From a virus (taxonomy: Duplodnaviria; Heunggongvirae; Uroviricota; Caudoviricetes): 45,246 bases of DNA. Of the stretch, positions 14,261 to 45,246 are shown piece after piece. The stretch lies in IMG/VR virus record IMGVR_UViG_2778261297_000003, one strand, 5' to 3'. The translations under genes were made by a program, and so were the position numbers. Position 1 is the stretch's first letter; every line of letters starts with the position of its first letter. The notes beneath the pieces are model-generated. The model saw only the letters and a program-made list of their open reading frames with translations. It ran no database searches and was not told the origin of the DNA.

Positions 14261-14616
14261 CGCAGTTTTACCACATTGAGGACAAGACGAGATCCGCCAT
14301 GACTGTCGGGTTCGACGTTTGACACAACAAATAACTGATTGATGATGTGACCACCGACCGTCTTTATAAATACCCGGTCAGATACAGCAGGTTGCGATTT
14401 ACCCAGCTTGCGAAATTCAGCATCGCGCACACCCAACATCGGGCTGGAGGTGTTAATTTCTGAATCGCCATCAAGGTTTTCAGCAACCTGCGCATAACCA
14501 CGGTCAAAAATCCCGTTAATTGTAAAAGGAGTACCGTTACGTGGACGGTACTCGTGCTCATCGCCAAAGACATCATGCAGCGGACTCAGAAGATGAGAAT
14601 CCCAGTCCACGCCCAT
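14257..14616 (-). CDS. head-tail joining protein (FII-like position, putative)
   Basis: About 119 aa from MGVDWDSH; follows the FI-position gene. Confidence 0.45.
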   Translation of the reverse strand: MGVDWDSHLLSPLHDVFGDEHEYRPRNGTPFTINGIFDRGYAQVAENLDGDSEINTSSPMLGVRDAEFRKLGKSQPAVSDRVFIKTVGGHIINQLFVVSNVEPDSHGGSRLVLNVVKLR

Positions 14617-14620
14617 GTCA

Positions 14621-15001
14621 TTACCCTGTCGTAACTGAAACTGATGGCTGAGAAGCAAGAACTCGCTTACGAAGCACATCAACATCAGCAATAACGCCGG
14701 ACTGCAGAAGACGCTCAGCATCTTTGCCGGTTACAGGGATGCGCATATTTTCGCGGTACATCTCCCCGTCATGACGAATGCAATTCCCTTTCAACACCAC
14801 ATACTCCTGCGATTCAGTGTCTCCGGATTTTTCGTCACCACCATCGTCATCAACAGACAATTCGGCATCATCTGTTTTGCTCAAAGGCTGTTTTTCCTGG
14901 GTGTTATCGCCAGCATTCAGGTCGTCAACGCTCAGGCCGTCTTTGGCAGATCCTTCTGCATTCAGATCATCAGCCAGCCCGGTATTAGGTTGTTTTGCCA
15001 T
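14621..15001 (-). CDS. acidic head protein in FI position (putative DNA packaging / head completion)
   Basis: ATG at 14999-15001 overlaps the capsid gene stop; GGTGG RBS; acidic N-terminal half. Confidence 0.35.
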   Translation of the reverse strand: MAKQPNTGLADDLNAEGSAKDGLSVDDLNAGDNTQEKQPLSKTDDAELSVDDDGGDEKSGDTESQEYVVLKGNCIRHDGEMYRENMRIPVTGKDAERLLQSGVIADVDVLRKRVLASQPSVSVTTG

Positions 15002-15002
15002 A

Positions 15003-16052
15003 TCAGACCACCGTTGCGCAGAGGGATGCATTTACCCGGCTCGGAATAACCAGCGGGGAGGATTGCATCAGGATAAGACGCTGGGCTGGATCTTCTTTCA
15101 CCCAGGATTTTGGCGCATAAGCCAGCGGACCGTAGTTGAAAGCCGGGTCCAGGATAACGCCAAATGCGCGGGTACCCATCAGATCGGCACCACTCATAAT
15201 GACAGCGCCATCGGGGATCATAGGCTTCTCGACGTTGTCCAGCGGGTCAATAAACCAGTCGTTATATAACCAGAGGTCAAAGTTACCCCAGCGCCCTTTA
15301 TAAATTGCGCCCTTCATTACCTGTGGGCCGGCGTTAATCTGGTTACCAAACGGGCTCAGCGCCGGGAATGTAATGGCGTTATCCTTGATGGTGGTATCCA
15401 GTCGGAATGCACGCCATGACTTATTCGTAAAGACCAGATCCGTGGCGACAGAGCCGGACTCTTTCAGGAAAGTAGTCTGCCAGATTTCAATGTCATCTGA
15501 TGGCTGGGTATTGGTAGCGCCAGCTGCAACGGTCAGTGGCCATTTATCCGAGCCGCTAAGAGTGATGGTCAGATCCGAAGCACGCCCGAAATCCACCACC
15601 TGAGTTTCATAGCCCTCCCCGGCGACGGTTACGGTCCCAGACACCAGCGCACTCGCCGCCATCCATTCCAGACGACGGTTGATCATGTCAATCTGGTCAG
15701 TCATTTCAAACTGAAGGTTCAGCATTTCGCGCTCGGCAGCGGTATATTCCCCGCCAATACGCTCACCAATCTGGCGGCGGATAGGTTTGCGCAGGTCCGG
15801 CGCGCGCTTATCTTTGATGTATGCCGGTTTGAAGGTATTGGTCTGGTATTTACGGGATTCGACCAGCTTACCTTCCACCAGCGGGGAGACGAACGGCGCC
15901 ATACGACGCAGGCCGACATCAACATCAATCGCCACTTCTTCAGTCTCGTAAGTCACGACATTCGGGAAGAAGCGATCGAGCAGCCAGTTCTGACTGGTTT
16001 TCAGGTTAGGAACAACCTGCACCAGCACGCTGGTATCAAAAATATTTTCCAT
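15003..16052 (-). CDS. major capsid protein (lambda E-like)
   Basis: 349 aa from MENIFDTSVL; overall resemblance to lambda gpE and position after the D-like gene. Confidence 0.85.
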   Translation of the reverse strand: MENIFDTSVLVQVVPNLKTSQNWLLDRFFPNVVTYETEEVAIDVDVGLRRMAPFVSPLVEGKLVESRKYQTNTFKPAYIKDKRAPDLRKPIRRQIGERIGGEYTAAEREMLNLQFEMTDQIDMINRRLEWMAASALVSGTVTVAGEGYETQVVDFGRASDLTITLSGSDKWPLTVAAGATNTQPSDDIEIWQTTFLKESGSVATDLVFTNKSWRAFRLDTTIKDNAITFPALSPFGNQINAGPQVMKGAIYKGRWGNFDLWLYNDWFIDPLDNVEKPMIPDGAVIMSGADLMGTRAFGVILDPAFNYGPLAYAPKSWVKEDPAQRLILMQSSPLVIPSRVNASLCATVV

Positions 16053-17145: not shown

Positions 17146-18012
17146 TCAGGCTCCTGTTTTTTCAAGTAAGTTTTTGAACGCAGCGTCAGGAGGACACACC
17201 TCATCAGCCAGTCCAATTTCAACGCCATCAGCAGCCATAAAACAGGCGGCCTGGGTACTTTTTATAACCTTTGCGCTAATCCCCCGGTTTCTGGCAACAG
17301 TGTTCACAAACAATTCGCCCATGGTGTTAATGTCCTGCTGGATGGCGGCCAGCGCTTCATCTGACAACTCTCTCAGCGGCGAACCTTCAGCCTTGCGGGA
17401 TCCATAGGTGATGATCGTAACTTTAAGACCGTCATCTTTAATCCGCTGCGTCCAGTCAAGGTGCATGGTGATCACACCCACAGAACCCACTCCGCCGGTG
17501 CGCGGAACAGAAATCCGGTCCGCTGCACTGGCAATGGCATACGCAGCGGAATAAGCGCTTTCCGTCAGAATGGCATGGATAGGCTTTTTCCCCCGGGAGC
17601 CGTAAATGACATCAACCAGATCGAAGCATCCAGCGACCTCGCCGCCGGGTGAGTCGATATCCAGGCAAATTCCCGAAATGTCGGGATCTTCCATCGCAGT
17701 AAGAAACGCCTGACGAATGCCGTCATACCCTGTCATTCCACTGTACGGACGCAGACTGCCCAGTTTTTGCACCAGCGTTCCGCATATCGGGATGACGGCG
17801 ACACCCAGCACATTGTCATAACCCGGATCACTACGGGATTCACGTCCCCGGTTATCGTCATATCCGTACCAGTCATCCTCCATGGCAAGAGAAGATTCGA
17901 TTTTACTGATACCAAATCGGTCCATTACGGATGCCATGATGACTTCGGCTTTACTCGGGTGCAGCGCCAGCGGGGTGTTAAATAATCGCTGGGCCAGATG
18001 GGGTAGATTCAC
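17146..18012 (-). CDS. head maturation protease (S49/ClpP-fold, lambda C-like)
   Basis: 288-aa ORF after portal; SppA/ClpP-like features (..DSPGGEV.., ..SAAYAIASAAD..). Confidence 0.8.
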   Translation of the reverse strand: MNLPHLAQRLFNTPLALHPSKAEVIMASVMDRFGISKIESSLAMEDDWYGYDDNRGRESRSDPGYDNVLGVAVIPICGTLVQKLGSLRPYSGMTGYDGIRQAFLTAMEDPDISGICLDIDSPGGEVAGCFDLVDVIYGSRGKKPIHAILTESAYSAAYAIASAADRISVPRTGGVGSVGVITMHLDWTQRIKDDGLKVTIITYGSRKAEGSPLRELSDEALAAIQQDINTMGELFVNTVARNRGISAKVIKSTQAACFMAADGVEIGLADEVCPPDAAFKNLLEKTGA

Positions 18013-25311: not shown

Positions 25312-26364
25312 TTATTCCCCTGTTAACGCCCTTATTTCCCCCACCGTCTGGCTAAACCTGTCCTTCTCGAGTTCAACGCCGATAGCCTGGCGGCCAAGTT
25401 CCAGCGCGATTTTCACGGTCGAACCGGACCCCATAAAGAAATCAGCCACCACATCACCAGGCTTACTGCTGGCGTTGATGATCTGCCGCAACATGTCAGC
25501 GGGTTTTTCGCATGGGTGTTTACCTGGGTAAAACTGAACGGGTTTATGTGTCCAGACGTCGGTATAAGGAACGGATACGGAAACAGAGAAATGCCGCCGA
25601 AGCGATTTGTACTCTTCGAGCAGCTCTGAATACTTGCGATTTAACGAATGCCACATAGCCACCAGCTGGTGGTGTGGTGTTGCCAGTTCGCCGTTCTGGT
25701 GCTTTTCGATGGCTACCTGCGTGAAAAGGGACTGAAGCTTCCGGTAGTCTGATTCATTCGGTAATTGCCACTGGCTACCGCTGAACCAGTGAGACACCAT
25801 GTTCTTCTTTCCAGTCGCATCGGCTATTTGTTTTGAGGTTATGCCAAGCGCTTCACGTGCATCCCGGAAATAAGAAATTAGGGGAGTCATTACATGCTGC
25901 TTCAGCTCGCTTCCCTTCTCAGCGTACCCGTCGCTCTTTGGTTTATACGGCCCCTGGTAATGCTCAGCGAACAGGATGCGCTCTGTTGCAGGGAAGTAAG
26001 AGCGCAGGCTCTCTTTATTACAGCCATTCCAGCGGCCCGACGGTTTAGCCCAGATGATGTGGTTCAGGACGTTGAACCGCTCACGCATCATGATCTCAAT
26101 GTCTGCCGCCAGACGGTGACCTGAGAAAAGATAAAGACTGCCGGCAGGTTTAAGCACTCGCCAGAATTGTGCGAGGCACATATCAAGCCAGCGAAGATAA
26201 TCCTCATCCCCTTTCCATTGATTGTCCCAGCCGTTGGGTTTCACTTTGAAGTACGGCGGATCCGTGACTATCAGGTCAATGAAGTTATCAGGGAGAGTTG
26301 CGATGTATTGCAGGCTATCAGCGTTGACTAACTCAACACTGTTTATATTTACAGTATTTTTCAT
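25312..26364 (-). CDS. DNA methyltransferase, beta-class (N6-adenine or N4-cytosine; DPPY motif)
   Basis: 350 aa; motif IV VTDPPY near the N-terminus and motif I FFMGSGST near the C-terminus. Confidence 0.8.
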   Translation of the reverse strand: MKNTVNINSVELVNADSLQYIATLPDNFIDLIVTDPPYFKVKPNGWDNQWKGDEDYLRWLDMCLAQFWRVLKPAGSLYLFSGHRLAADIEIMMRERFNVLNHIIWAKPSGRWNGCNKESLRSYFPATERILFAEHYQGPYKPKSDGYAEKGSELKQHVMTPLISYFRDAREALGITSKQIADATGKKNMVSHWFSGSQWQLPNESDYRKLQSLFTQVAIEKHQNGELATPHHQLVAMWHSLNRKYSELLEEYKSLRRHFSVSVSVPYTDVWTHKPVQFYPGKHPCEKPADMLRQIINASSKPGDVVADFFMGSGSTVKIALELGRQAIGVELEKDRFSQTVGEIRALTGE

Positions 26365-26533
26365 AGATCCGTAAGCGTAACTCTGATAGGCTCACTATGC
26401 TTTTGCGCTAAAGCAGTGGGCCTTGGTTAGCTTGTGACCTGTAAGCATGAGCTGATGGTTGGTCGGGTGCTACAACACCCACCAGCCGCCCATTCCACAG
26501 CAAAACTCCTCCATATTGAAGGAACGAAGGCGT

Positions 26534-26568
26534 AAAAAAGCCCTGATTTTCAGGTCAGGGCATTTTTA
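26534..26568. terminator. bidirectional terminator-like hairpin
   Basis: AAAAAA-GCCCTGA-TTTTCAGG-TCAGGGC-ATTTTTAAT, immediately 3' of the protease gene. Confidence 0.55.
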
Positions 26569-26582
26569 ATAAAATCTGAAAT

Positions 26583-27482
26583 TTACGCGTTTCCAGGAGG
26601 GACATGCCAGACTCTTCGGCCATCCTCATGGTTCTCGATAATCTTGGCTGCTGTACTGCCACCAAAAGTGTGCATATAGCTATGATGTATCGTTAACACA
26701 ATATCTTGTAATGCCTGATCTGCTTCCATCGGTATGATTTTCAAACCAATTTGGCTAGCTTTATCACTGTGAATATGACGTGCATGAGCAAAAGTTGAAC
26801 TGTGGTTATTCAGGCTTGAACAAATAGCTTCAGCCTTTTGCTGGGCATCTGGATCCCCATCAAACATACCAGTAATTAGCCATTCACTGACAATTGTTGT
26901 TGCCCATTGGATTGCCTTTTCACACTCACCAATGAACGTCGGATTGAGTTTAGACAGTGTAAATTGCCAATACGCAGCAGTCGCAGGGTTTTTAATAATA
27001 TCTTGCATAGCCTTCTGCGCTTCTTCAATCACGCCATGTGCTGGCACGCCACCGATTTGGGGATCGAAAGGACCGATATTTGATTGTTTCCCCATGATGA
27101 TTTCTTTTGCACAACAAGCCAACATAGTCCCTGCTGACATAGATATCATGGGGACAAAAGCACGGATATCGTTACCGAACTTAGCTCTCAAGTAATAACC
27201 TATCGATTCTAAGGCGGCGATATCCCCACCAGGTGTATGCAAAATGAGATCAAGCCCCTTCGTGGCATCGAGCCCATGAACCGCTGTCATGAATCCATTT
27301 TTATCATCATCAGACATAGTGCATAAATGCGAGCTATTCTGAAGGAACCCCGAGTAGTACGCAATGACGTTACGTCCGGTCATCTGCGACATCTCTTTGA
27401 TATATTTGCTTCTTACTGTGTCTAGGGGGCTTTTTTGGGCGAGGACTGCAACCTCGCCCATAACATGATTCCAATTAGGCAT
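26583..27482 (-). CDS. Clp/crotonase-fold serine protease (S49/SDH-like), accessory
   Basis: 299 aa; ..LILHTPGGDIAALESIGYYL.. and ..ISMSAGTMLACCAKEIIMG.. resemble ClpP/SppA-fold serine peptidases; family assignment from memory. Confidence 0.55.
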   Translation of the reverse strand: MPNWNHVMGEVAVLAQKSPLDTVRSKYIKEMSQMTGRNVIAYYSGFLQNSSHLCTMSDDDKNGFMTAVHGLDATKGLDLILHTPGGDIAALESIGYYLRAKFGNDIRAFVPMISMSAGTMLACCAKEIIMGKQSNIGPFDPQIGGVPAHGVIEEAQKAMQDIIKNPATAAYWQFTLSKLNPTFIGECEKAIQWATTIVSEWLITGMFDGDPDAQQKAEAICSSLNNHSSTFAHARHIHSDKASQIGLKIIPMEADQALQDIVLTIHHSYMHTFGGSTAAKIIENHEDGRRVWHVPPGNA

Positions 27483-27496
27483 TGTTCATCTTATTG

Positions 27497-27706
27497 TTAG
27501 TATGAATACAGTTGGTACGATGCATTTCCTTGTTGATTGTAATCAACATTTTCCAGGTGAGAACCTGTCGAATAAATCACACCTTTTTGCCCAGAACCAA
27601 CTGATGAGGTACTCATTACTCTGCGACCAAAATCAGTTGCTGTTTCGTTTGGCAAAAATTCTGCGGGGGTGATACCAAAATCGTCATAAAGCTGGTTTAT
27701 GTTCAT
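27497..27706 (-). CDS. small protein (69 aa) co-transcribed with the serine protease
   Basis: ATG at 27704-27706 with GGAGAG RBS; 14-nt gap to the protease start; no recognisable family. Confidence 0.5.
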   Translation of the reverse strand: MNINQLYDDFGITPAEFLPNETATDFGRRVMSTSSVGSGQKGVIYSTGSHLENVDYNQQGNASYQLYSY

Positions 27707-27725
27707 GGCTGCGCTCTCCAACAAA

Positions 27726-27769
27726 CTACATGTAGTAAAAAAACAACTTCGGCACACAACATGTAGATT
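27726..27769. promoter_or_regulatory. palindromic operator-like sites ACTACATGTAGT and CAACATGTAGAT
   Basis: Perfect 12-bp palindrome 27726-27737 plus a related copy 27758-27769, just upstream of the small-protein gene RBS. Confidence 0.35.
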
Positions 27770-27787
27770 TCACTAAGGGATAGATAC

Positions 27788-27809
27788 GAAAAAACCTCCC
27801 AAGTGGAGG
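27788..27809 (-). terminator. rho-independent terminator
   Basis: Minus strand CCTCC-ACTT-GGGAGG followed by TTTTTTCG. Confidence 0.5.
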
Positions 27810-28010
27810 TCAAGATTGCTTTAGTTATGCGCTAAATATGGTCTGAACATACGTTATATGCAATCTTTTTTGCACAGATTAGTGGTGTTTCTCGGAGATT
27901 TCTTGACTTTTTTTGTTGTAAGTGCAGCTTAACAACAAATTCCTATGAATGTATAAACAGTATCTTTTTATGTTGTTATGGTCGCCGGGTAATCCCATCC
28001 ACTTAGTACG

Positions 28011-28040
28011 TGAAAATGAAAAACCCGCTCGCTGGCGGGT
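28011..28040 (-). terminator. late-promoter-proximal terminator (tR'-like)
   Basis: Minus strand CCCGC-CAGCGA-GCGGG followed by TTTTTCATTTTC, about 95 bp downstream of the putative Q gene. Confidence 0.55.
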
Positions 28041-28134
28041 TTATATACTCATGGCAACATATCAAATTAGCTTTAAATATCGCTTATTTTGTTGCATTTT
28101 GCAAGCCTGATTGAAGACGTTAGTGAAATTTACT

Positions 28135-28827
28135 TCACATTTCTACCACTTTCGCTTCTTCATACTCTTCGTACCGCGCCAGGCTTTCACATAACGCCAC
28201 GCTGTCCATTTCCACGAAAGCTGCTTTAAATGCTGTCCAGTGAGCAGCGTATACCCTTAGCCAAGTTGAACGCTCCACGCTCACCATGCGGGCCAGTGCA
28301 GCCCCCGCATACTCCTGGTACGTATCGTTATTGCGTGATGCCGCAACTTCCTGGGCCGCGAGCCAGACCAACCCCACTAATTTTTTTGTGACTCTGTCTT
28401 GGAGCTTCTTACTCCCCTGCTGATGCTGAAACTGTGCCCAAACGTACTGGCACATTAACGTCTGGTACCGGAAAGACAGGTCATACCCATAGCAATACCT
28501 CACCCATGCCTGCAAATGCTCCCCCAGACCATTCACCGAACGACGCCATGCTGAACAAGCGAACTCCGTATCCTTAATAGGCGGTAAAGGTCGACGACGG
28601 CTCCTTGTCTCAAGAACATAAAGTGGAGTGGCCAGCGTTTTTACAACCTTGGATCCACAACCTTCCCCACCCTCCATGATGATTTCAGGATGGTGCCGGG
28701 GGTATTTGTTCTTATCTGCTGGTGGATGCTCACTGAACGCCTGCAGCTGTCCTTTTGTCGATCCTGATAAATCCGCCAGCGCGCGGCGCAGTTCAATCCG
28801 TGTAAATTCCAGTTCTTGTAAATTCAT
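28135..28827 (-). CDS. late antiterminator Q (putative)
   Basis: About 230 aa from MNLQELEF; mainly positional: last gene before a promoter-proximal terminator and the late/lysis region. Confidence 0.5.
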   Translation of the reverse strand: MNLQELEFTRIELRRALADLSGSTKGQLQAFSEHPPADKNKYPRHHPEIIMEGGEGCGSKVVKTLATPLYVLETRSRRRPLPPIKDTEFACSAWRRSVNGLGEHLQAWVRYCYGYDLSFRYQTLMCQYVWAQFQHQQGSKKLQDRVTKKLVGLVWLAAQEVAASRNNDTYQEYAGAALARMVSVERSTWLRVYAAHWTAFKAAFVEMDSVALCESLARYEEYEEAKVVEM

Positions 28828-30613: not shown

Positions 30614-32551
30614 TCAGGCGGCTGCACCCGCCTTTTGATTTGCACATAATTCAGGAAGATTTGCTTCTACCAGCGCACGAGCGAACGGCGGCGGTACTGC
30701 GTTACCACAGCGCGCTACCTGCTTGTCTTTGGCGTAACGATTGCCGCGATAGTCCTGATCGATAACGTAGCCGTCAGGGAAGCCCTGCGCCTTATAAAGC
30801 TCATGCGGTTGCAGCATGCGCATTCCGATATCGACGATCTGGTACTTAACCCCCTCGATCGTCACCAGCCATTCATCCTCGCTATCACCGCAGTAGGTTT
30901 CGAGGAATGTCCGGACCTCGCCAACGTGCTGGCCACCAGCGGTAATCGTCGGCATAGGTGTATCCATGGTCTGACCGTCGCTGCAGGTTCCGCGCAGCTT
31001 CACCAGGTGCGACGCAACTACCGCGTGGTGATCAACAGTAGTGACTGAGTGGGCAGGCTCATCCATACCAACACCCGGCCCCGTGTAATTCCCACCATAG
31101 TGCTTCGCCAGGAACGCGCTCACCGTTGCAAACTTATTACCACCAGCAGTGACCGTGCCGAGCGGGTTATTCAGTTGAAGAACACGCGGTTCTTGCCCTG
31201 GGCGTTCGCCGTACCCCATCTGGATCAGTGTTGGAGTTACCAGCTGCGACTTACCGCCACCACCTGCAGTAATCGTCGCACTCGGTTCGTCAGCCCTGTG
31301 CCCAACACTGGCTCCAAACTGGCGGGCGATGACCGGCGCAACCACGCACGCGCGGGACTGCTTGAGGATTGTATGAGCGGGTTTATCCAGCGGGCGCGGC
31401 TTTGCCTGGTACTCACTGCCGCCATTGCCAGCCAGGAACGGTGTCAGGGCGGCCTCAACTACGCCAAGCGCATGCCCATTCCCGCCCGGGCGCGCCGACG
31501 TACCAGCGGTGACAGTTGGTACCGGCTCGGTCACTGGCTGCCCGGTGGCCCCGGTGCGGAATTTAGTAAGATGCGGTACCGCCAGTGCGTAGCCATGCTT
31601 TTTAGTGATGGTCTGCAATGGCTCTAACAACGATTGCCCGCGGAAACAGTCATAACCTCCTTTCGTCGTGGTGTGGTTACACTTCACGATGAAAGGTGAT
31701 GCGCTTTCGATAACAAAGCGCTGGATGCCGCGCGCGATACGTTTGAGCGTATTTTCCGCCAGCGGCTTTTTGCGGTCGAAGATGGACCGGGCCGGGATAT
31801 TCCAGTCAATGCACTCCGCCGCGGTACGCCATGGCGCCAGCTTGCCGCTTTGTACTTCCAGTGATTTTGGATCCCCATGAGTCGCTTCAGGCCAATGAAT
31901 CTTGCGGCCGTCACAGCGCATGACCATGAAGAAACGCTTTCTGATCGTCGGCGCGCCGTAGTCACATGCGCGCAGCTCCCGATAATCAACCTCATAACCA
32001 AGCCCGGCGATCAGCTGTTGCGCCTGCTGGCCGTGCGGCTCAATGGCAAGGAATTCACAAACCTCAGCCAGCGCAGGGTGATTCGCCGCGATCCCCGTCG
32101 ACAGCATGCCGACAAATGCCTCGAATGTTTCGCCAGCACGCTCAGGATCTGGGCGTAATTCTTCATCCAGCAGCGGGCCCCATGTCTTAAACTCTTCGAC
32201 GTTCTCCAGCATCATGACGCGGGGACGTACTGCCAGCGCCCAGCGCAGGACAATCCACGCCAGCCCGCGAATCTCTTTCTTAACCGGCTTAGCGCCCTTC
32301 GCCTTGGAAAAGTGGCGGCAGTCAGGGCTAAACCAGGCCAGACCGACAGGTTTACCGCTGGTGGCTGCGCTTGGGTCAACGTCAAACACCGACTCGCAAT
32401 AATGCAGCGTGTCAGGGTGATTCGTCTTATGCATCGCAATAGCGTTTTCGTCGTGGTTGATAGCGATATCCACGCTACGCCCGATCGCCAGTTCAATGCC
32501 GGTACTCGCGCCGCCGCCACCAGCAAAGTTATCAACGATAATTTCACGCAT
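30614..32551 (-). CDS. DNA (cytosine-5)-methyltransferase, large, with repeated TRD-like modules
   Basis: About 645 aa from MREIIVDNFAGGGGAS (motif I); SPDC..FS.AKG (motif IV-like), MLENV (motif VI), RKRFFMV (motif VIII), CGNAV (motif X); four TxTAGG-containing repeats between motifs VIII and X. Confidence 0.8.
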   Translation of the reverse strand: MREIIVDNFAGGGGASTGIELAIGRSVDIAINHDENAIAMHKTNHPDTLHYCESVFDVDPSAATSGKPVGLAWFSPDCRHFSKAKGAKPVKKEIRGLAWIVLRWALAVRPRVMMLENVEEFKTWGPLLDEELRPDPERAGETFEAFVGMLSTGIAANHPALAEVCEFLAIEPHGQQAQQLIAGLGYEVDYRELRACDYGAPTIRKRFFMVMRCDGRKIHWPEATHGDPKSLEVQSGKLAPWRTAAECIDWNIPARSIFDRKKPLAENTLKRIARGIQRFVIESASPFIVKCNHTTTKGGYDCFRGQSLLEPLQTITKKHGYALAVPHLTKFRTGATGQPVTEPVPTVTAGTSARPGGNGHALGVVEAALTPFLAGNGGSEYQAKPRPLDKPAHTILKQSRACVVAPVIARQFGASVGHRADEPSATITAGGGGKSQLVTPTLIQMGYGERPGQEPRVLQLNNPLGTVTAGGNKFATVSAFLAKHYGGNYTGPGVGMDEPAHSVTTVDHHAVVASHLVKLRGTCSDGQTMDTPMPTITAGGQHVGEVRTFLETYCGDSEDEWLVTIEGVKYQIVDIGMRMLQPHELYKAQGFPDGYVIDQDYRGNRYAKDKQVARCGNAVPPPFARALVEANLPELCANQKAGAAA

Positions 32552-33878
32552 TGACGGCCCCCTGCATGCTGTTGAAGAGACCACCAGCGGTCGTGATAAT
32601 TTCACTCGTCGGCATACGTTCGAGCCACAGCTGGTTGATATTGGCTTTCAGCTTGTTCTGCTGCGAAACAGGTAGAGCGTCAGCCCCTTCAATCTGGTTA
32701 AACACCAGTCCAACCTCAAGAGGCCAAACGCGCGATTCGTTTAACGCCTTGTCCTTTGATTCCTGCGTCTCACGGACATGGGCGCGGATCCCCCGAATAT
32801 TTGACCATTTGGCTTTATCCAGGCTTTCCATGGTCGCGATGAATTCACTGTGGTTAATGCCGTATTCTTTCGCAGACTCAACGGCAACCGTGCGTAACCG
32901 CTCTGACATGTCTTGTTTCACGTCATCGCTATCAAAGGGCAATGTTTCCAGCCATGCATTAACACCCACCAGGATGCTCTCGCTGATCAGCTTTTTCGCT
33001 CTGTCGATCGTCAGCGGTGAAACATTGGTAAATTCAGGGTTTTCCAGAGAGTCGGCAGCCCAGGTATGACCAAACTTTGACTCGCTGAAGGTGTACTCGT
33101 CTTTCTTGCCGAACGCCGCGACAACACAGGCCCAAGCCTCTACACCGCTGGTTTCCAGAATGGCTTTTTGGGTTAATGGCAGTTCTGCCTCTGATTTCTC
33201 CGGCACTACCTCAGCGTCCAGCTCCGGCGCCGCATCAGTTTGCGTTCTTCCCACGGCAAATTGGGCCAGCGACATCGCAGCACGGCCTTTGGCCTCCAGG
33301 TCGGTGCGGTTGATGTAACTGAAACGCTCACCCCGCCATGTTTTGTCGAAGACCACGATAGCGCCAGCAAAAAATGCGCTGGTGGGCTGCTGCTTTTCGT
33401 CTTTCGGCACGAACCATGTAGGAAGATCGAAACCAATTCGGCCACGGATGAATGTGACGTGATCTGCCTCTTCCGGCCACCACGTCTCACTCGTCGCAGA
33501 CTTAATGAGAAAAACGTACCGTCCACCCTTTTCTCGCATTGCCATAGCGTGGTTAATGATGTGGGTCATTCCGGTAACGGCCTGCTTGTCGTGGTACTGA
33601 GAGCGGCTGTAAGGCGGGTTGCCAAACCCGGCACCACCGAGTTCTGCCAGACGCTCTGACCAATCCTGCGTCAGGGCATTATTTTCAGCCGTGTACCAGG
33701 TTGGGCACTTCGCGTTGCTGTCGTCGGCAAAAAGGTCCAACACCAGAGGGCCGAACATCGCATTGATACCCCAAAACAACAGATCCGGAGTGCGCCATTG
33801 ATCGCCGACCTCTTTCAACTCATGGGCTGGTTTTGAACGCAGTTCAGCCAGCGCGCGGCAGTATTTGCTTTCAATCAT
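32544..33878 (-). CDS. phage Dam-type N6-adenine methyltransferase (NPPY) fused to a 270-aa C-terminal domain of unknown function
   Basis: N-terminal region WRTPDLLF...GFGNPPYS matches phage Dam family; C-terminal extension has no recognised motifs. Confidence 0.7.
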   Translation of the reverse strand: MIESKYCRALAELRSKPAHELKEVGDQWRTPDLLFWGINAMFGPLVLDLFADDSNAKCPTWYTAENNALTQDWSERLAELGGAGFGNPPYSRSQYHDKQAVTGMTHIINHAMAMREKGGRYVFLIKSATSETWWPEEADHVTFIRGRIGFDLPTWFVPKDEKQQPTSAFFAGAIVVFDKTWRGERFSYINRTDLEAKGRAAMSLAQFAVGRTQTDAAPELDAEVVPEKSEAELPLTQKAILETSGVEAWACVVAAFGKKDEYTFSESKFGHTWAADSLENPEFTNVSPLTIDRAKKLISESILVGVNAWLETLPFDSDDVKQDMSERLRTVAVESAKEYGINHSEFIATMESLDKAKWSNIRGIRAHVRETQESKDKALNESRVWPLEVGLVFNQIEGADALPVSQQNKLKANINQLWLERMPTSEIITTAGGLFNSMQGAVNA

Positions 33879-36661: not shown

Positions 36662-36690
36662 TCCCTTCCCGCTCTTCCTCTAAGCATCAA

Positions 36691-36742
36691 GCTAAGTTTA
36701 GTTTGATGTTTCACTTGACCAACAAACTAAGTTAAGTTAGAT
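36691..36742. promoter_or_regulatory. OL-like operator cluster downstream of cI
   Basis: GCTAAGTTTAGTTTGAT (36691-36707) and AACTAAGTTAAGTTAGAT (36725-36742) repeat the OR half-site motif CTAAG/CTTAG. Confidence 0.5.
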
Positions 36743-36862
36743 TTTTTCTGTCGACACCAAACCACCGCGCCTGATGTGGTTAAAAGCAGGCCAAAGCATT
36801 ATGAAGTGATCCCTGTTCTGGCTGTTCACTTCCCATGAGGGTGACAGCCAGCTTTTTAAGGG

Positions 36863-36942
36863 CACAACGTGAAAGCGCACTCCATCAACTATCGGTTGTG
36901 GATGACAGGTAAGTAAACAGGCGGAGTGCGCTTCCAGTTGTG
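36863..36942 (+). repeat. structured element A (about 19-bp stem, 39-nt loop) in the untranslated leader
   Basis: 5' arm CACAAC-G-TGAAAGCGCACTCC pairs with 3' arm GGAGTGCGCTTCC-A-GTTGTG. Confidence 0.5.
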
Positions 36943-37205
36943 ATGAATTGCAGCCCTTTGAGGCAACCAGAAGATAAGCACCTGGCGTCACAGCACTATT
37001 GAACATGGCGAAAGCCGAAAGACTTGAAGGCGGTTTTCTCAGGTTGCGCGCTAAAGAATAGCGGGGAGAACCTGGGGCGGAGAGCAAACCCCGCGATGCA
37101 GGACTTGAAATACCTCACAGACCAATAAGCCGTCTGGCAGCGTAACTGCCCTTTACATCAGCCCCGGCGAGGTGGCGCCGCCGGACCGGGGCTGGTGAAT
37201 CGCAA

Positions 37206-37281
37206 CACAACATGAAAGCGCATTCCTCTTTTCACTGATGGGGATCGGTTTGTTACCTGGCGGAGTGCGCTTCCAGTTGTG
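37206..37281 (+). repeat. structured element B (second copy of element A with a G-U-compatible substitution)
   Basis: Same arms as element A (CACAAC-A-TGAAAGCGCATTCC ... GGAGTGCGCTTCC-A-GTTGTG); a C to T change yields a G.U wobble; loop differs but keeps ATCGGTT and a ..GGC junction. Confidence 0.5.
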
Positions 37282-37619
37282 GTAATGCGGCTCTGCGCAC
37301 GTGACGAGGCCAACAAGTTTTTATTTCAACTTTTGAAATGAATACGTTTCTTGTGGTGTAGCGTCGCCGGTTCTGGCCGGTCCGGCAGGTGGAGGCACCA
37401 CCGCCACAACAACATCATTGCTGTGTGTAGTCTTTGCCCATCACATCGGTGGGCACCTTTTTTACACAAGAGACAAGGGCATCACCGGGCGACGGGCTCA
37501 TTCCCCAATCCACCCGGGCAAGAGGATAGCGATTGCAGTCGCCGACAAATGCAGGTGCCCTTCTCTGTTGTGTATGGAGAAAGTTCGGCGGTGGCAGCCG
37601 CCATAACGAGGGTAAAACC

Positions 37620-44356: not shown

Positions 44357-44878
44357 TTACATTTTGTCTAACTGATATCGTGCGGCCACTAATGATACTC
44401 CGCATGCCTCAGCTACATTTTCAGCACTCATACCTTTCAGAACATTGGCATGAATAGCCGGTACTAATAGCTCACCACTGAAACATTTGGCTTGCCACTC
44501 ACTACTCTCAAAAGGGCGGATTTTTACCCCTGGAGCAGAACGCGCGAAAGCAATGTTCCTGTGCATGAGAAGATGTCCCAGTTCATGTGCGGCAGTCATC
44601 CTGTCACGCCCTACCCCATTCAAAGCACCCTCGTAAATGTCTTCACGAAGAATCAATAAATGTTCCTGTGGGTAGGTGAGACCGTGCGTCTCCCCCATTT
44701 CCTTCATCCCACCGATATGGAGTTCAAAATCTGGGATCAACTGAGGCAATGCGAACTCAATCACCTCCATAACAGGAAACATCAGACCTGTAATACCGAA
44801 GGTGCTCCGCAGAGATCTGACGATAGAACGTATTGATTCGCGGTTCTGCGGGGGTACACGATAATCTTGTCCGCTCAA
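44357..44878 (-). CDS. ImmA/IrrE-family zinc metallopeptidase (DUF955/COG2856-like)
   Basis: 173 aa with HEXXH motif (AAHELGHLLMH). Confidence 0.8.
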   Translation of the reverse strand: MSGQDYRVPPQNRESIRSIVRSLRSTFGITGLMFPVMEVIEFALPQLIPDFELHIGGMKEMGETHGLTYPQEHLLILREDIYEGALNGVGRDRMTAAHELGHLLMHRNIAFARSAPGVKIRPFESSEWQAKCFSGELLVPAIHANVLKGMSAENVAEACGVSLVAARYQLDKM

Positions 44879-44886
44879 AATGCCTC

Positions 44887-45246
44887 CTACTGCTGTTTTC
44901 GATTCAAAATCTGTCGTAAATTCCGGAAGTCTTCTTCATTTAACTCATCAAAACTACGAGCGAACGCAATTGCGACTTCACGAGCATGGTCGTTCTTACC
45001 TGACAAGCTGATCTCTACTGATTGCTGAGAGTCACGAGCTGCACTGATAAGCTTTTCTTTTTGTTTTTCATCCGCATTCAGATAGCCAATGATGCTATCA
45101 AGCACGGGTTTAGTGACCGCCCTTTTACCAGTTTCGATTGCTGAAAGATAAGACGAGGTCATACCCATAGCCTCAGCCATGCTTTTAAGCGTAAGCCCCA
45201 GGTCTATGCGCATTTTTCTTACTGTCTTACCAAACGGCGTTAACAT
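44887..45246 (-). CDS. XRE-family HTH transcriptional regulator
   Basis: 119 aa; HTH ..LGLTLKSMAEAMGMTSSYLSAIETGKR..; start codon at the window edge. Confidence 0.8.
   Translation of the reverse strand: MLTPFGKTVRKMRIDLGLTLKSMAEAMGMTSSYLSAIETGKRAVTKPVLDSIIGYLNADEKQKEKLISAARDSQQSVEISLSGKNDHAREVAIAFARSFDELNEEDFRNLRQILNRKQQ

Follow-up and report, generated by a model that had tools for sequence, protein, structure and literature searches.

The stretch of DNA analyzed here, a window of 45,246 nucleotides from IMG/VR virus record IMGVR_UViG_2778261297_000003, is an Escherichia coli prophage that carries, downstream of its late activator gene Q, a gene for a 69-residue protein followed by a gene for a 299-residue serine protease of the ClpP fold. 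As the analysis showed, the locus forms a self-contained cassette of two genes that moves horizontally and that here occupies, as a moron, the slot between Q and the lysis genes. The function and mechanism of the pair are inferred tentatively, and with less than even confidence, as those of a protease with its dedicated substrate or pseudosubstrate, a toxin–antitoxin-like module for exclusion or abortive infection. The adjacency and co-divergence of the two genes, the architecture of the small partner, the intact Ser116 of the protease, the mobility of the pair, its moron and defence contexts and its features of inserted cargo would all support such a module.

Both genes lie on the minus strand. 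The small partner gene occupies positions 27497..27706 and the protease gene positions 26583..27482, the latter beginning 14 nt after the former in the same direction. The first-pass annotation had proposed this two-gene unit, and both open reading frames (ORFs) were confirmed; RefSeq also annotates the two, the small one as hypothetical. The start of the protease is placed at M8 (26583-27461) by the Prokaryotic Genome Annotation Pipeline (PGAP), but the 299-residue start was favoured here because the N-terminus is MP[NS]W throughout the family. Apparent long protease ORFs were rejected as upstream-start artefacts, the true start always being MP[NS]W. A Shine-Dalgarno-like GGAGAG can be read on the minus strand at 27714..27719, 7 nt before the ATG of the small gene, and a purine-rich box is retained at this position across orthologous loci.

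The coupling of the two genes was studied in 80 genome loci fetched with the protease, including 7458 ORFs, and in 80 viral loci. In most of the genome loci a same-strand ORF of 55–90 amino acids ends at most about 30 nt from the protease start, and the gaps between the cassette genes are mostly from -8 to +30 nt. An iterative hidden Markov model (HMM) seeded with the small protein of the window converged on 45 of the 80 genome loci and then matched 62 of the 80 viral loci, every match being a same-strand ORF directly adjoining the protease. The partner is located upstream of the protease in most lineages and downstream in Lachnospiraceae-type loci. The loci without an HMM match mostly either had no upstream sequence available or included a divergent ORF of equal size and position with a Ser/Thr-rich tail. 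The upstream ORFs of Bacteroidota and beta-proteobacteria aligned weakly to the partner family (hhalign E ~3e-4), while two other types of upstream ORF (C and E) did not align to it despite their like size, position and Ser/Thr-rich tail.

The distances among proteases and among partners were correlated (Spearman 0.64), a value reached by 0 of 500 permutations in the Mantel test. The partner diverges much faster, its median identity being 20% against 56% for the protease. No conserved third gene was found in the neighbourhoods, where the 146 flanking genes included 143 Pfam families.

Judged by its sequences, the small protein is a real family without a Pfam entry, previously unannotated, whose members are often missed by gene callers. 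It matches PHROG 25714 (E = 3e-13), and a direct search with it found five close relatives and no more. A profile search of 1.84 billion representatives identified 359 partner clusters; the best 150 of these 359 were standalone proteins of about 50–100 amino acids apart from a few mis-called or repetitive ORFs, and none of them had a name or a Pfam domain. Among the same best 150 of 359 clusters, no partner naturally fused to a protease was found. The alignment of 253 distinct members follows the pattern I-x3-[FY]-x2-[LF]-G-[IL]-x5-P-x-Y-x2-[PA]-x2-[FY]-A-[RK]-x-F-K-[KR]-C-[ST]-x6-[VI]-x-Y-S-x2-[ST], which the protein of the window fits with QLYDDFGI...DFGRRV...GVIYSTGS.

The AlphaFold 2 model of the small protein includes two helices, residues 3-9 and 23-33, with a predicted local distance difference test (pLDDT) score of about 88, and a disordered tail with scores below 50. 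The tail carries the motif V43-I-Y-S-T-G-S49, encoded on the minus strand at 27560..27580, which corresponds to the family consensus [VI]-x-Y-S-x-x-[ST]. Among the 253 members the first position is V or I in 85%, the tyrosine is present in 84%, the serine in 75% and the final S or T in 92%. Beyond the motif the members differ in both length and composition, some having just 2-3 residues left. Neither Pfam nor the AlphaFold 2 model recognised a DNA-binding fold or domain in the partner. The enterobacterial partners, and these only, have a further conserved Tyr-Ser motif as their very last residues (...QLYSY, ...LYTY; residues 64-69 in the window), and they are without the cysteine that 70% of the family conserve.

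The protease passed the Pfam model PF01972 for ClpP-like SDH-type serine proteinases with 66.6 bits against a cutoff of 31.3 (2.4e-18), over residues 56-164 only, and missed the threshold of the NCBIfam equivalog NF047768 with 85.7 bits against 250; it is therefore a member of the family but of a distinct subfamily. The family itself is already annotated and is functionally uncharacterised: PGAP names the protein 'SDH family Clp fold serine proteinase', and the full-length match to PHROG 11747 (E ~1e-107) is to a group of unknown function. Residues 114-118 form the motif SMSAG, and the predicted nucleophile, Ser116 in M-S-A-G (codon read from the sequence at 27135..27137, minus strand), aligns with the catalytic serine both in ClpP (1y7o) and in the protease 1510-N (2deo/3bpp). 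The ClpP/SppA-fold serine protease of the first-pass annotation was thus upheld. Neither cassette protein matches a Pfam membrane or export domain, and no signal peptide or long hydrophobic segment was visible by eye; the protease is predicted to be cytoplasmic, with its nucleophile intact.

The AlphaFold 2 model of the protease (pLDDT 84) shows a ClpP-like core and, C-terminal to it, a domain of helices about 140 residues long. The closest solved folds are all weak matches (E ~1e-3, TM score ~0.35-0.4, 12-13% identity) and consist of Bacillus subtilis SppA, ClpP and the stomatin-specific protease 1510-N. In one of these entries, 4kwb, the active site of SppA is occupied by the C-terminus of SppA itself, and in another, 3viv, 1510-N has a peptide substrate bound. 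Among viral models in BFVD the closest are the 'serine dehydrogenase proteinases' of giant viruses (TM scores up to 0.63), well ahead of the head proteases of phages. Many paralogous proteins of this name, from Marseillevirus and from Klosneuvirinae such as Hyperionvirus, were present among the BFVD matches.

The 238 distinct homologues of the protease are at least 48% identical (median 57%). Residues S116, H82, D58, D60, D78, D140 and C187 are invariant in all of them, and so are H233, H236, E253, H266, H267, E283 and N284 further along the chain. The candidates for the catalytic Asp and His, D140, H82, H233, H236, H266 and H267, are all within this invariant set, which far exceeds the needs of a minimal protease.

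The ClpP/S49 superfamily fold is common also to head-maturation and scaffold proteases, and the cassette protein, if read as a displaced protease of this kind, gives weak matches to head-maturation models (NF045542, E = 9e-5; phrog_53, E = 1.4e-5). The scores nevertheless fall far short: the ClpP-related model NF045542 has a cutoff of 120 bits and gave 22.5, NF045540 gave 13.2 against 475, and the phrog_53 match is to be set against ~1e-107 for phrog_11747. The profile search thus placed the protein in no routine structural or scaffold-protease family. The complete lambda-like head module of the prophage already has its own Peptidase_S49 gene (17146-18012, between the portal and capsid genes), whose product has just the TPGG turn in common with the cassette protease, and the cassette protease family occurs also outside phages and in archaea. 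Together with the location of the gene and the ranking of the folds, these results effectively refute a head protease.

A partner consisting of a structured part and a Ser/Thr-rich tail could also be read as a precursor, the leader and core of a bioactive or signalling peptide that the protease would cut or modify. The conserved Y-S-x-[ST]-[ST] segment and the strict coupling to a dedicated protease fit such peptide maturation, and the invariant H233, H236, H266, H267 and C187 of the additional C-terminal domain could bind a metal or hold a second activity. Nevertheless, the 146 neighbours include no conserved gene for export, immunity or modification, the proteins show none of the membrane or export features mentioned above, and what would be the core varies in length and composition down to a few residues. 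Peptide maturation is accordingly regarded as quite improbable.

The cassette has the features of inserted cargo. It was noted in the first-pass annotation to be bracketed by rho-independent terminators, and hairpins were found on both sides. The upstream one, at 27793..27811 on the minus strand, has the form GACCTCC-ACTTG-GGAGGTT followed by T6; its stem is maintained by compensatory changes in two orthologous loci (L087 and L004), and many prophage alleles of enterobacteria have an equivalent hairpin some 100 nt ahead of the small gene. The downstream one, at 26540..26561, is a bidirectional intrinsic terminator located 21 nt past the stop codon of the protease. Downstream terminators are common in the enterobacterial alleles (in 85 loci, 14 were counted on the sense and 4 on the antisense strand), and across the family the flanking terminators are mostly confined to these alleles. 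A third terminator (28021..28042, minus strand) is situated outside the cassette just after Q, and is either tR' or the end of an early transcript. Altogether, the segment 25200-29000 contains 15 terminator-like sites against 3.9 +/- 2.0 in shuffled sequences.

The GC content of the block 26500..28100 is 37-46% against 50-57% in both flanks, which marks the cargo, and the homology shared with phages that lack the cassette or carry other cargo stops at about 26505. The sister phages Eeyore and LLS have the same backbone of Ant, DUF968/HNH, Q, slot, methyltransferase and holin, and contain other unknown genes in the slot. This alternative cargo received no identity from Pfam or PADLOC, and there is therefore no hint of the slot as a defence hotspot. 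A slot filled differently in related phages, terminators of its own and deviant GC are features of a moron, a concept of Hendrix and colleagues, and the slot between Q and lysis in lambdoid phages is also that of stxAB, the moron of Stx phages. The cassette resembles such morons in its position after Q and a terminator and before lysis, in its own terminators and deviant GC and in its presence/replacement polymorphism, and differs in carrying cargo that has no relation to toxins.

Directly upstream of the small gene the first-pass annotation had described a perfect 12-bp palindrome with a related copy. Both boxes were found, ACTACATGTAGT at 27725-27736 being the perfect palindrome and ACAACATGTAGA at 27756-27767 a copy with two mismatches, 31 bp away. 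The pair (27725..27767) is a candidate operator or promoter region. These are the sole copies of the palindrome in the window; the raw count is not significant in itself, as two or more matches occurred in 18 of 100 shuffles, and more weight is carried by the proximity, position and conservation of the boxes. Both keep their position with symmetric substitutions (CTACATGTAG to CTATATATAG) in loci L002, L088, L087 and L004, and the diverged orthologous loci with both boxes come from Kluyvera, Buttiauxella and two viral contigs. A related palindrome, CACAACATGTTGTG, precedes another enterobacterial allele (L098). A universal upstream operator was rejected, palindromes upstream of the operon being not above chance outside the enterobacterial group. 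A weak -10-like TGTAGT is present upstream of the small gene beside the conserved boxes.

The protease family has at least 7997 database matches. With strict peptide patterns it was detected in at least 382 of 185,579 GTDB species, all at 50% identity or more, and these species represent Proteobacteria, Bacteroidota, Firmicutes, Planctomycetota, Verrucomicrobiota, Nitrospirota and Spirochaetota and, among archaea, Methanosarcinaceae. Such high identity across phyla and in Methanosarcinaceae points to frequent horizontal transfer under strong constraint. A family member is present in about 80 of 5426 complete E. coli genomes (~1.5%), always on the chromosome.

The cassette recurs in the slot between Q and lysis of many enterobacterial lambdoid prophages, the identical 299-residue protein (P0036) occurring in at least four different ones. 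Considering this recurrence and the frequency in E. coli, the earlier statement that the pair is not a standard lambdoid function had to be softened. The earlier placing between Q and the lysis cassette holds with one caveat: the cassette is downstream of Q (28135-28827, PF06323 at 1.5e-40), but a DNA methyltransferase gene (25312-26364) separates it from the lysis genes, the local order being Ant, DUF968, Q, 69-residue ORF, 299-residue ORF, DNA methyltransferase, holin, lysozyme and spanin.

In E. coli Nissle 1917 the cassette (locus L176, NZ_CP022686.1 454923-456041) likewise occupies the slot between Q and the methyltransferase of a lambdoid prophage, with a protease 63% and a partner 35% identical to those of the window. 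In this locus the protease and methyltransferase genes are separated by an additional gene, for a 63-residue protein that matches the DprA winged helix. The lambdoid prophage 3 of Nissle 1917 contributes to resistance against lambdoid phages, and its repressor alone gives only partial protection, the authors suspecting further prophage genes (PMC5987069). The cassette allele could be among these further resistance factors; this is a lead only, in which the carrying prophage is assumed to be prophage 3.

Outside this slot the cassette was found in several other settings of temperate phages. It lies beside the integrase in a Pseudomonas prophage, beyond the tail-fibre genes and in opposite orientation in a Proteus prophage, and beside HicAB inside the structural module in Porphyromonas phages; in Gordonia phage BeeGee it comes behind the minor tail genes. 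A Mu-like Shewanella phage has it immediately behind the late activator C and ahead of the lysis genes, and in another Shewanella prophage (L165) it stands directly after cI, co-oriented with it, in the position that rexAB occupies in lambda. The latter prophage also encodes proteins resembling Tad2 (of the anti-Thoeris family) and DndB, and a HEPN protein (907-1278, 14540-15601), and so has both defence and counter-defence cargo. In three different Proteus mirabilis prophages a gene for a DNA polymerase III theta subunit (HolE-like) is present about 400 nt upstream of the cassette (L186-L188, 7150-7380).

The two positions between a late activator and lysis genes, in phages of unrelated types, suggest a role in the phage's own lytic cycle, in which a late protease would break down proteins of the host (those of defence, stress proteases, or regulators of envelope and lysis) or else process some factor of phage or host, and the small protein would act as a chaperone, an inhibitor or a timer. 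The slot belongs to the first late transcript, through which Q-modified polymerase would read, and all carrier phages are temperate or prophage-derived, including the seven found among 50,697 records of cultured phages. Slots in other prophages, in contrast, are expressed in lysogeny or situated outside the late operon (after cI, beside int, beyond the tail fibres in opposite orientation), and the cassette is present also in non-phage islands and at plain chromosomal sites. It has bracketing terminators of its own, and the sister phages manage without it. The lytic-cycle role, its processing variant included, is unlikely on this evidence.

Among the non-phage sites, a Pseudomonas fluorescens island (L184 10684-12874, JTGG01000010.1) has the cassette on one side of an integrase and the PARIS genes AriA/AriB, as recognised by PADLOC, on the other. 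Other cassettes adjoin Fic and YafQ genes or lie at the edge of an integrative element. The 146 flanking genes include integrases, type I and IIG restriction-modification, BREX PglX/BrxL, UvrD/GajB-like and DRT-like genes, phage Q and holin. The pair was thereby found both in other prophages, in the like slot and in other moron slots, and outside phages. The proposal of an undescribed accessory cassette stood up well, as the moron features hold, the partner forms a conserved family and the pair moves among moron slots and defence islands.

The same features call to mind type II toxin–antitoxin systems, although the likeness is one of architecture only: a tight co-directional pair in which the first gene encodes a small, fast-evolving, partly disordered protein and the second a conserved enzyme, palindromes upstream in the enterobacterial alleles, and a location on, or at the edge of, mobile elements. 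If the selected role were retention of the prophage or island by post-segregational killing, a like logic of protease and inhibitor would serve addiction, and the boxes overlapping the likely promoter in enterobacterial alleles, as in autoregulated toxin–antitoxin operons, and the neighbouring toxin–antitoxin genes (HicAB; YafQ and Fic) would fit this. The differences are, however, considerable. Neither protein matched any toxin or antitoxin family in Pfam, NCBIfam or PADLOC; the partner has no recognisable DNA-binding domain; the palindromes do not rise above chance outside the enterobacterial group; and to our knowledge no toxin of a toxin–antitoxin system is a ClpP-fold protease. Only 4 of 72,556 plasmids have the cassette, unlike many toxin–antitoxin systems, and this near-absence counts against addiction and also against an exclusion module. 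Addiction as the selected role is thus improbable, and since many toxin–antitoxin systems prove to be defence systems, it overlaps with the exclusion reading.

In the tentatively preferred module, the small protein would be a dedicated ligand of the protease. Purely by inference, its disordered tail would dock as a strand in the substrate groove, as substrate or pseudosubstrate, in the way that SppA binds its own C-terminus (4kwb) or 1510-N the operon-encoded stomatin tail (3viv), and the bound partner would keep the protease occupied or latent. The module would be expressed from the prophage. An infecting phage would upset the balance, and the freed protease would cleave host or phage targets so that the infection fails. 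A possible trigger might be the shut-off of synthesis of a partner with fast turnover, or a phage protein that binds the partner or competes for it. When the prophage itself is induced, none of the three terminators would stop RNA polymerase modified by Q, and the cassette would therefore also be strongly expressed late in induction.

Several results weigh against such an exclusion module. Besides the rarity on plasmids, the location between a late activator and lysis genes, seen in phages of two unrelated types, would fit a lytic-cycle function as well. Promoter prediction gave no site of the sigma-70 type ahead of the small gene, which leaves expression in the lysogen presumptive. The invariant His, Asp and Cys residues of the C-terminal domain hint at chemistry or regulation beyond simple proteolysis. 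Neither protein matched anything in PADLOC-DB 2.0 at E <= 1, the adjacency to defence genes consists of individual, anecdotal examples without background correction, and several cassette loci are located among housekeeping genes. In the literature no study of the protease family in phage biology or defence was found, and no function for any member of the SDH proteinase family; the matches for DUF114 were prefix artefacts such as DUF1145 and DUF1149. It is possible, though doubtful, that the pair represents a widely transferred class of immune or conflict systems, in which an SDH protease would be held in check by a disordered 'bait' through its [VI]xYSxx[ST] tail and released by infection.

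The cassette protease shares its core fold, the G-x-S nucleophile elbow and the TPGG turn with the SDH-type proteinases (PF01972, MEROPS S49 relatives, NF047768), and its subfamily differs from them in the C-terminal domain of about 140 residues with invariant His and in the obligatory small partner. The 1510-N/NfeD protease with stomatin (PH1510/PH1511) is likewise a ClpP-fold serine protease whose substrate is encoded in the same operon, and SppA (4kwb) a ClpP-fold protease with its own C-terminal tail in the active-site groove. Both are membrane-bound proteases with a Ser-Lys dyad and act in membrane protein quality control, whereas the cassette pair is soluble-looking mobile cargo. Furthermore, their fold similarity to the cassette protease is weak, and the cassette partner is small and partly disordered.

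Prophage- or island-borne proteases that stay latent until infection are known from other systems. Lit of the e14 prophage, an abortive-infection and exclusion protease, cleaves EF-Tu, and IetAS and CalpL-CalpT are defence systems containing proteases, the small partner in CalpL-CalpT being the dedicated substrate. The cassette resembles these in general arrangement. The proteases belong, however, to other classes (Zn-metallo, subtilisin and Lon) without sequence relationship, and the cassette has neither a sensor domain nor an ATPase.

The rest of the window combines lambda-like regulation and a lambda-like head with a contractile tail, and matches of 100% identity were found in 3 of 5426 complete E. 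coli genomes, e.g. NZ_CM174221.1; the prophage is nearly complete. Its regulatory genes include a cI-like S24 repressor, Cro, Q and an integrase. The genes of the head encode gpW, the portal, the S49 protease and the decoration and major capsid proteins, and the minus strand carries the whole set of late genes. No Rfam families or tRNAs were detected anywhere in the window.

Some further features were observed outside the cassette. The prophage has three DNA methyltransferases, an unusually heavy load of self-protection or epigenetic genes: the N6/N4-type gene adjoining the cassette, and a cytosine-C5-type and an N6-adenine-type gene, the latter two at 30614-32551 and 32544-33878. Directly after the cI-like repressor there is an unannotated gap of about 960 bp (36662-37619) without a convincing ORF; the post-cI position is in lambdoid phages a frequent site of exclusion genes or RNAs expressed in the lysogen. 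The segment 971-2949, in which a recombinase gene of the invertase type adjoins a gp53-like fragment and two genes for tail-fibre assembly that point in opposite directions, looks like an invertible host-range segment of the Gin/Cin type. Just outside the integrase gene (44357-45246), an ImmA/IrrE metallopeptidase and a helix-turn-helix protein form a second pair of protease and small regulator, probably part of a neighbouring element.

If the cassette, compact at 1.1 kb, is a defence or exclusion module, it would represent a new enzymatic logic in prokaryotic immunity, a ClpP-fold protease gated by a tiny disordered partner. That proteases from an E. coli prophage and from Methanosarcinaceae are still about 50% identical implies tight constraint on the target or the mechanism, as well as frequent passage from one domain of life to another. 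As the cassette occupies the slot of the Shiga toxin genes and is present in the probiotic strain Nissle 1917 and about 1.5% of E. coli, it bears on prophage-mediated resistance in clinical and therapeutic strains. New here are the definition of the small-protein family and, with it, a first functional handle on the SDH proteinase family.

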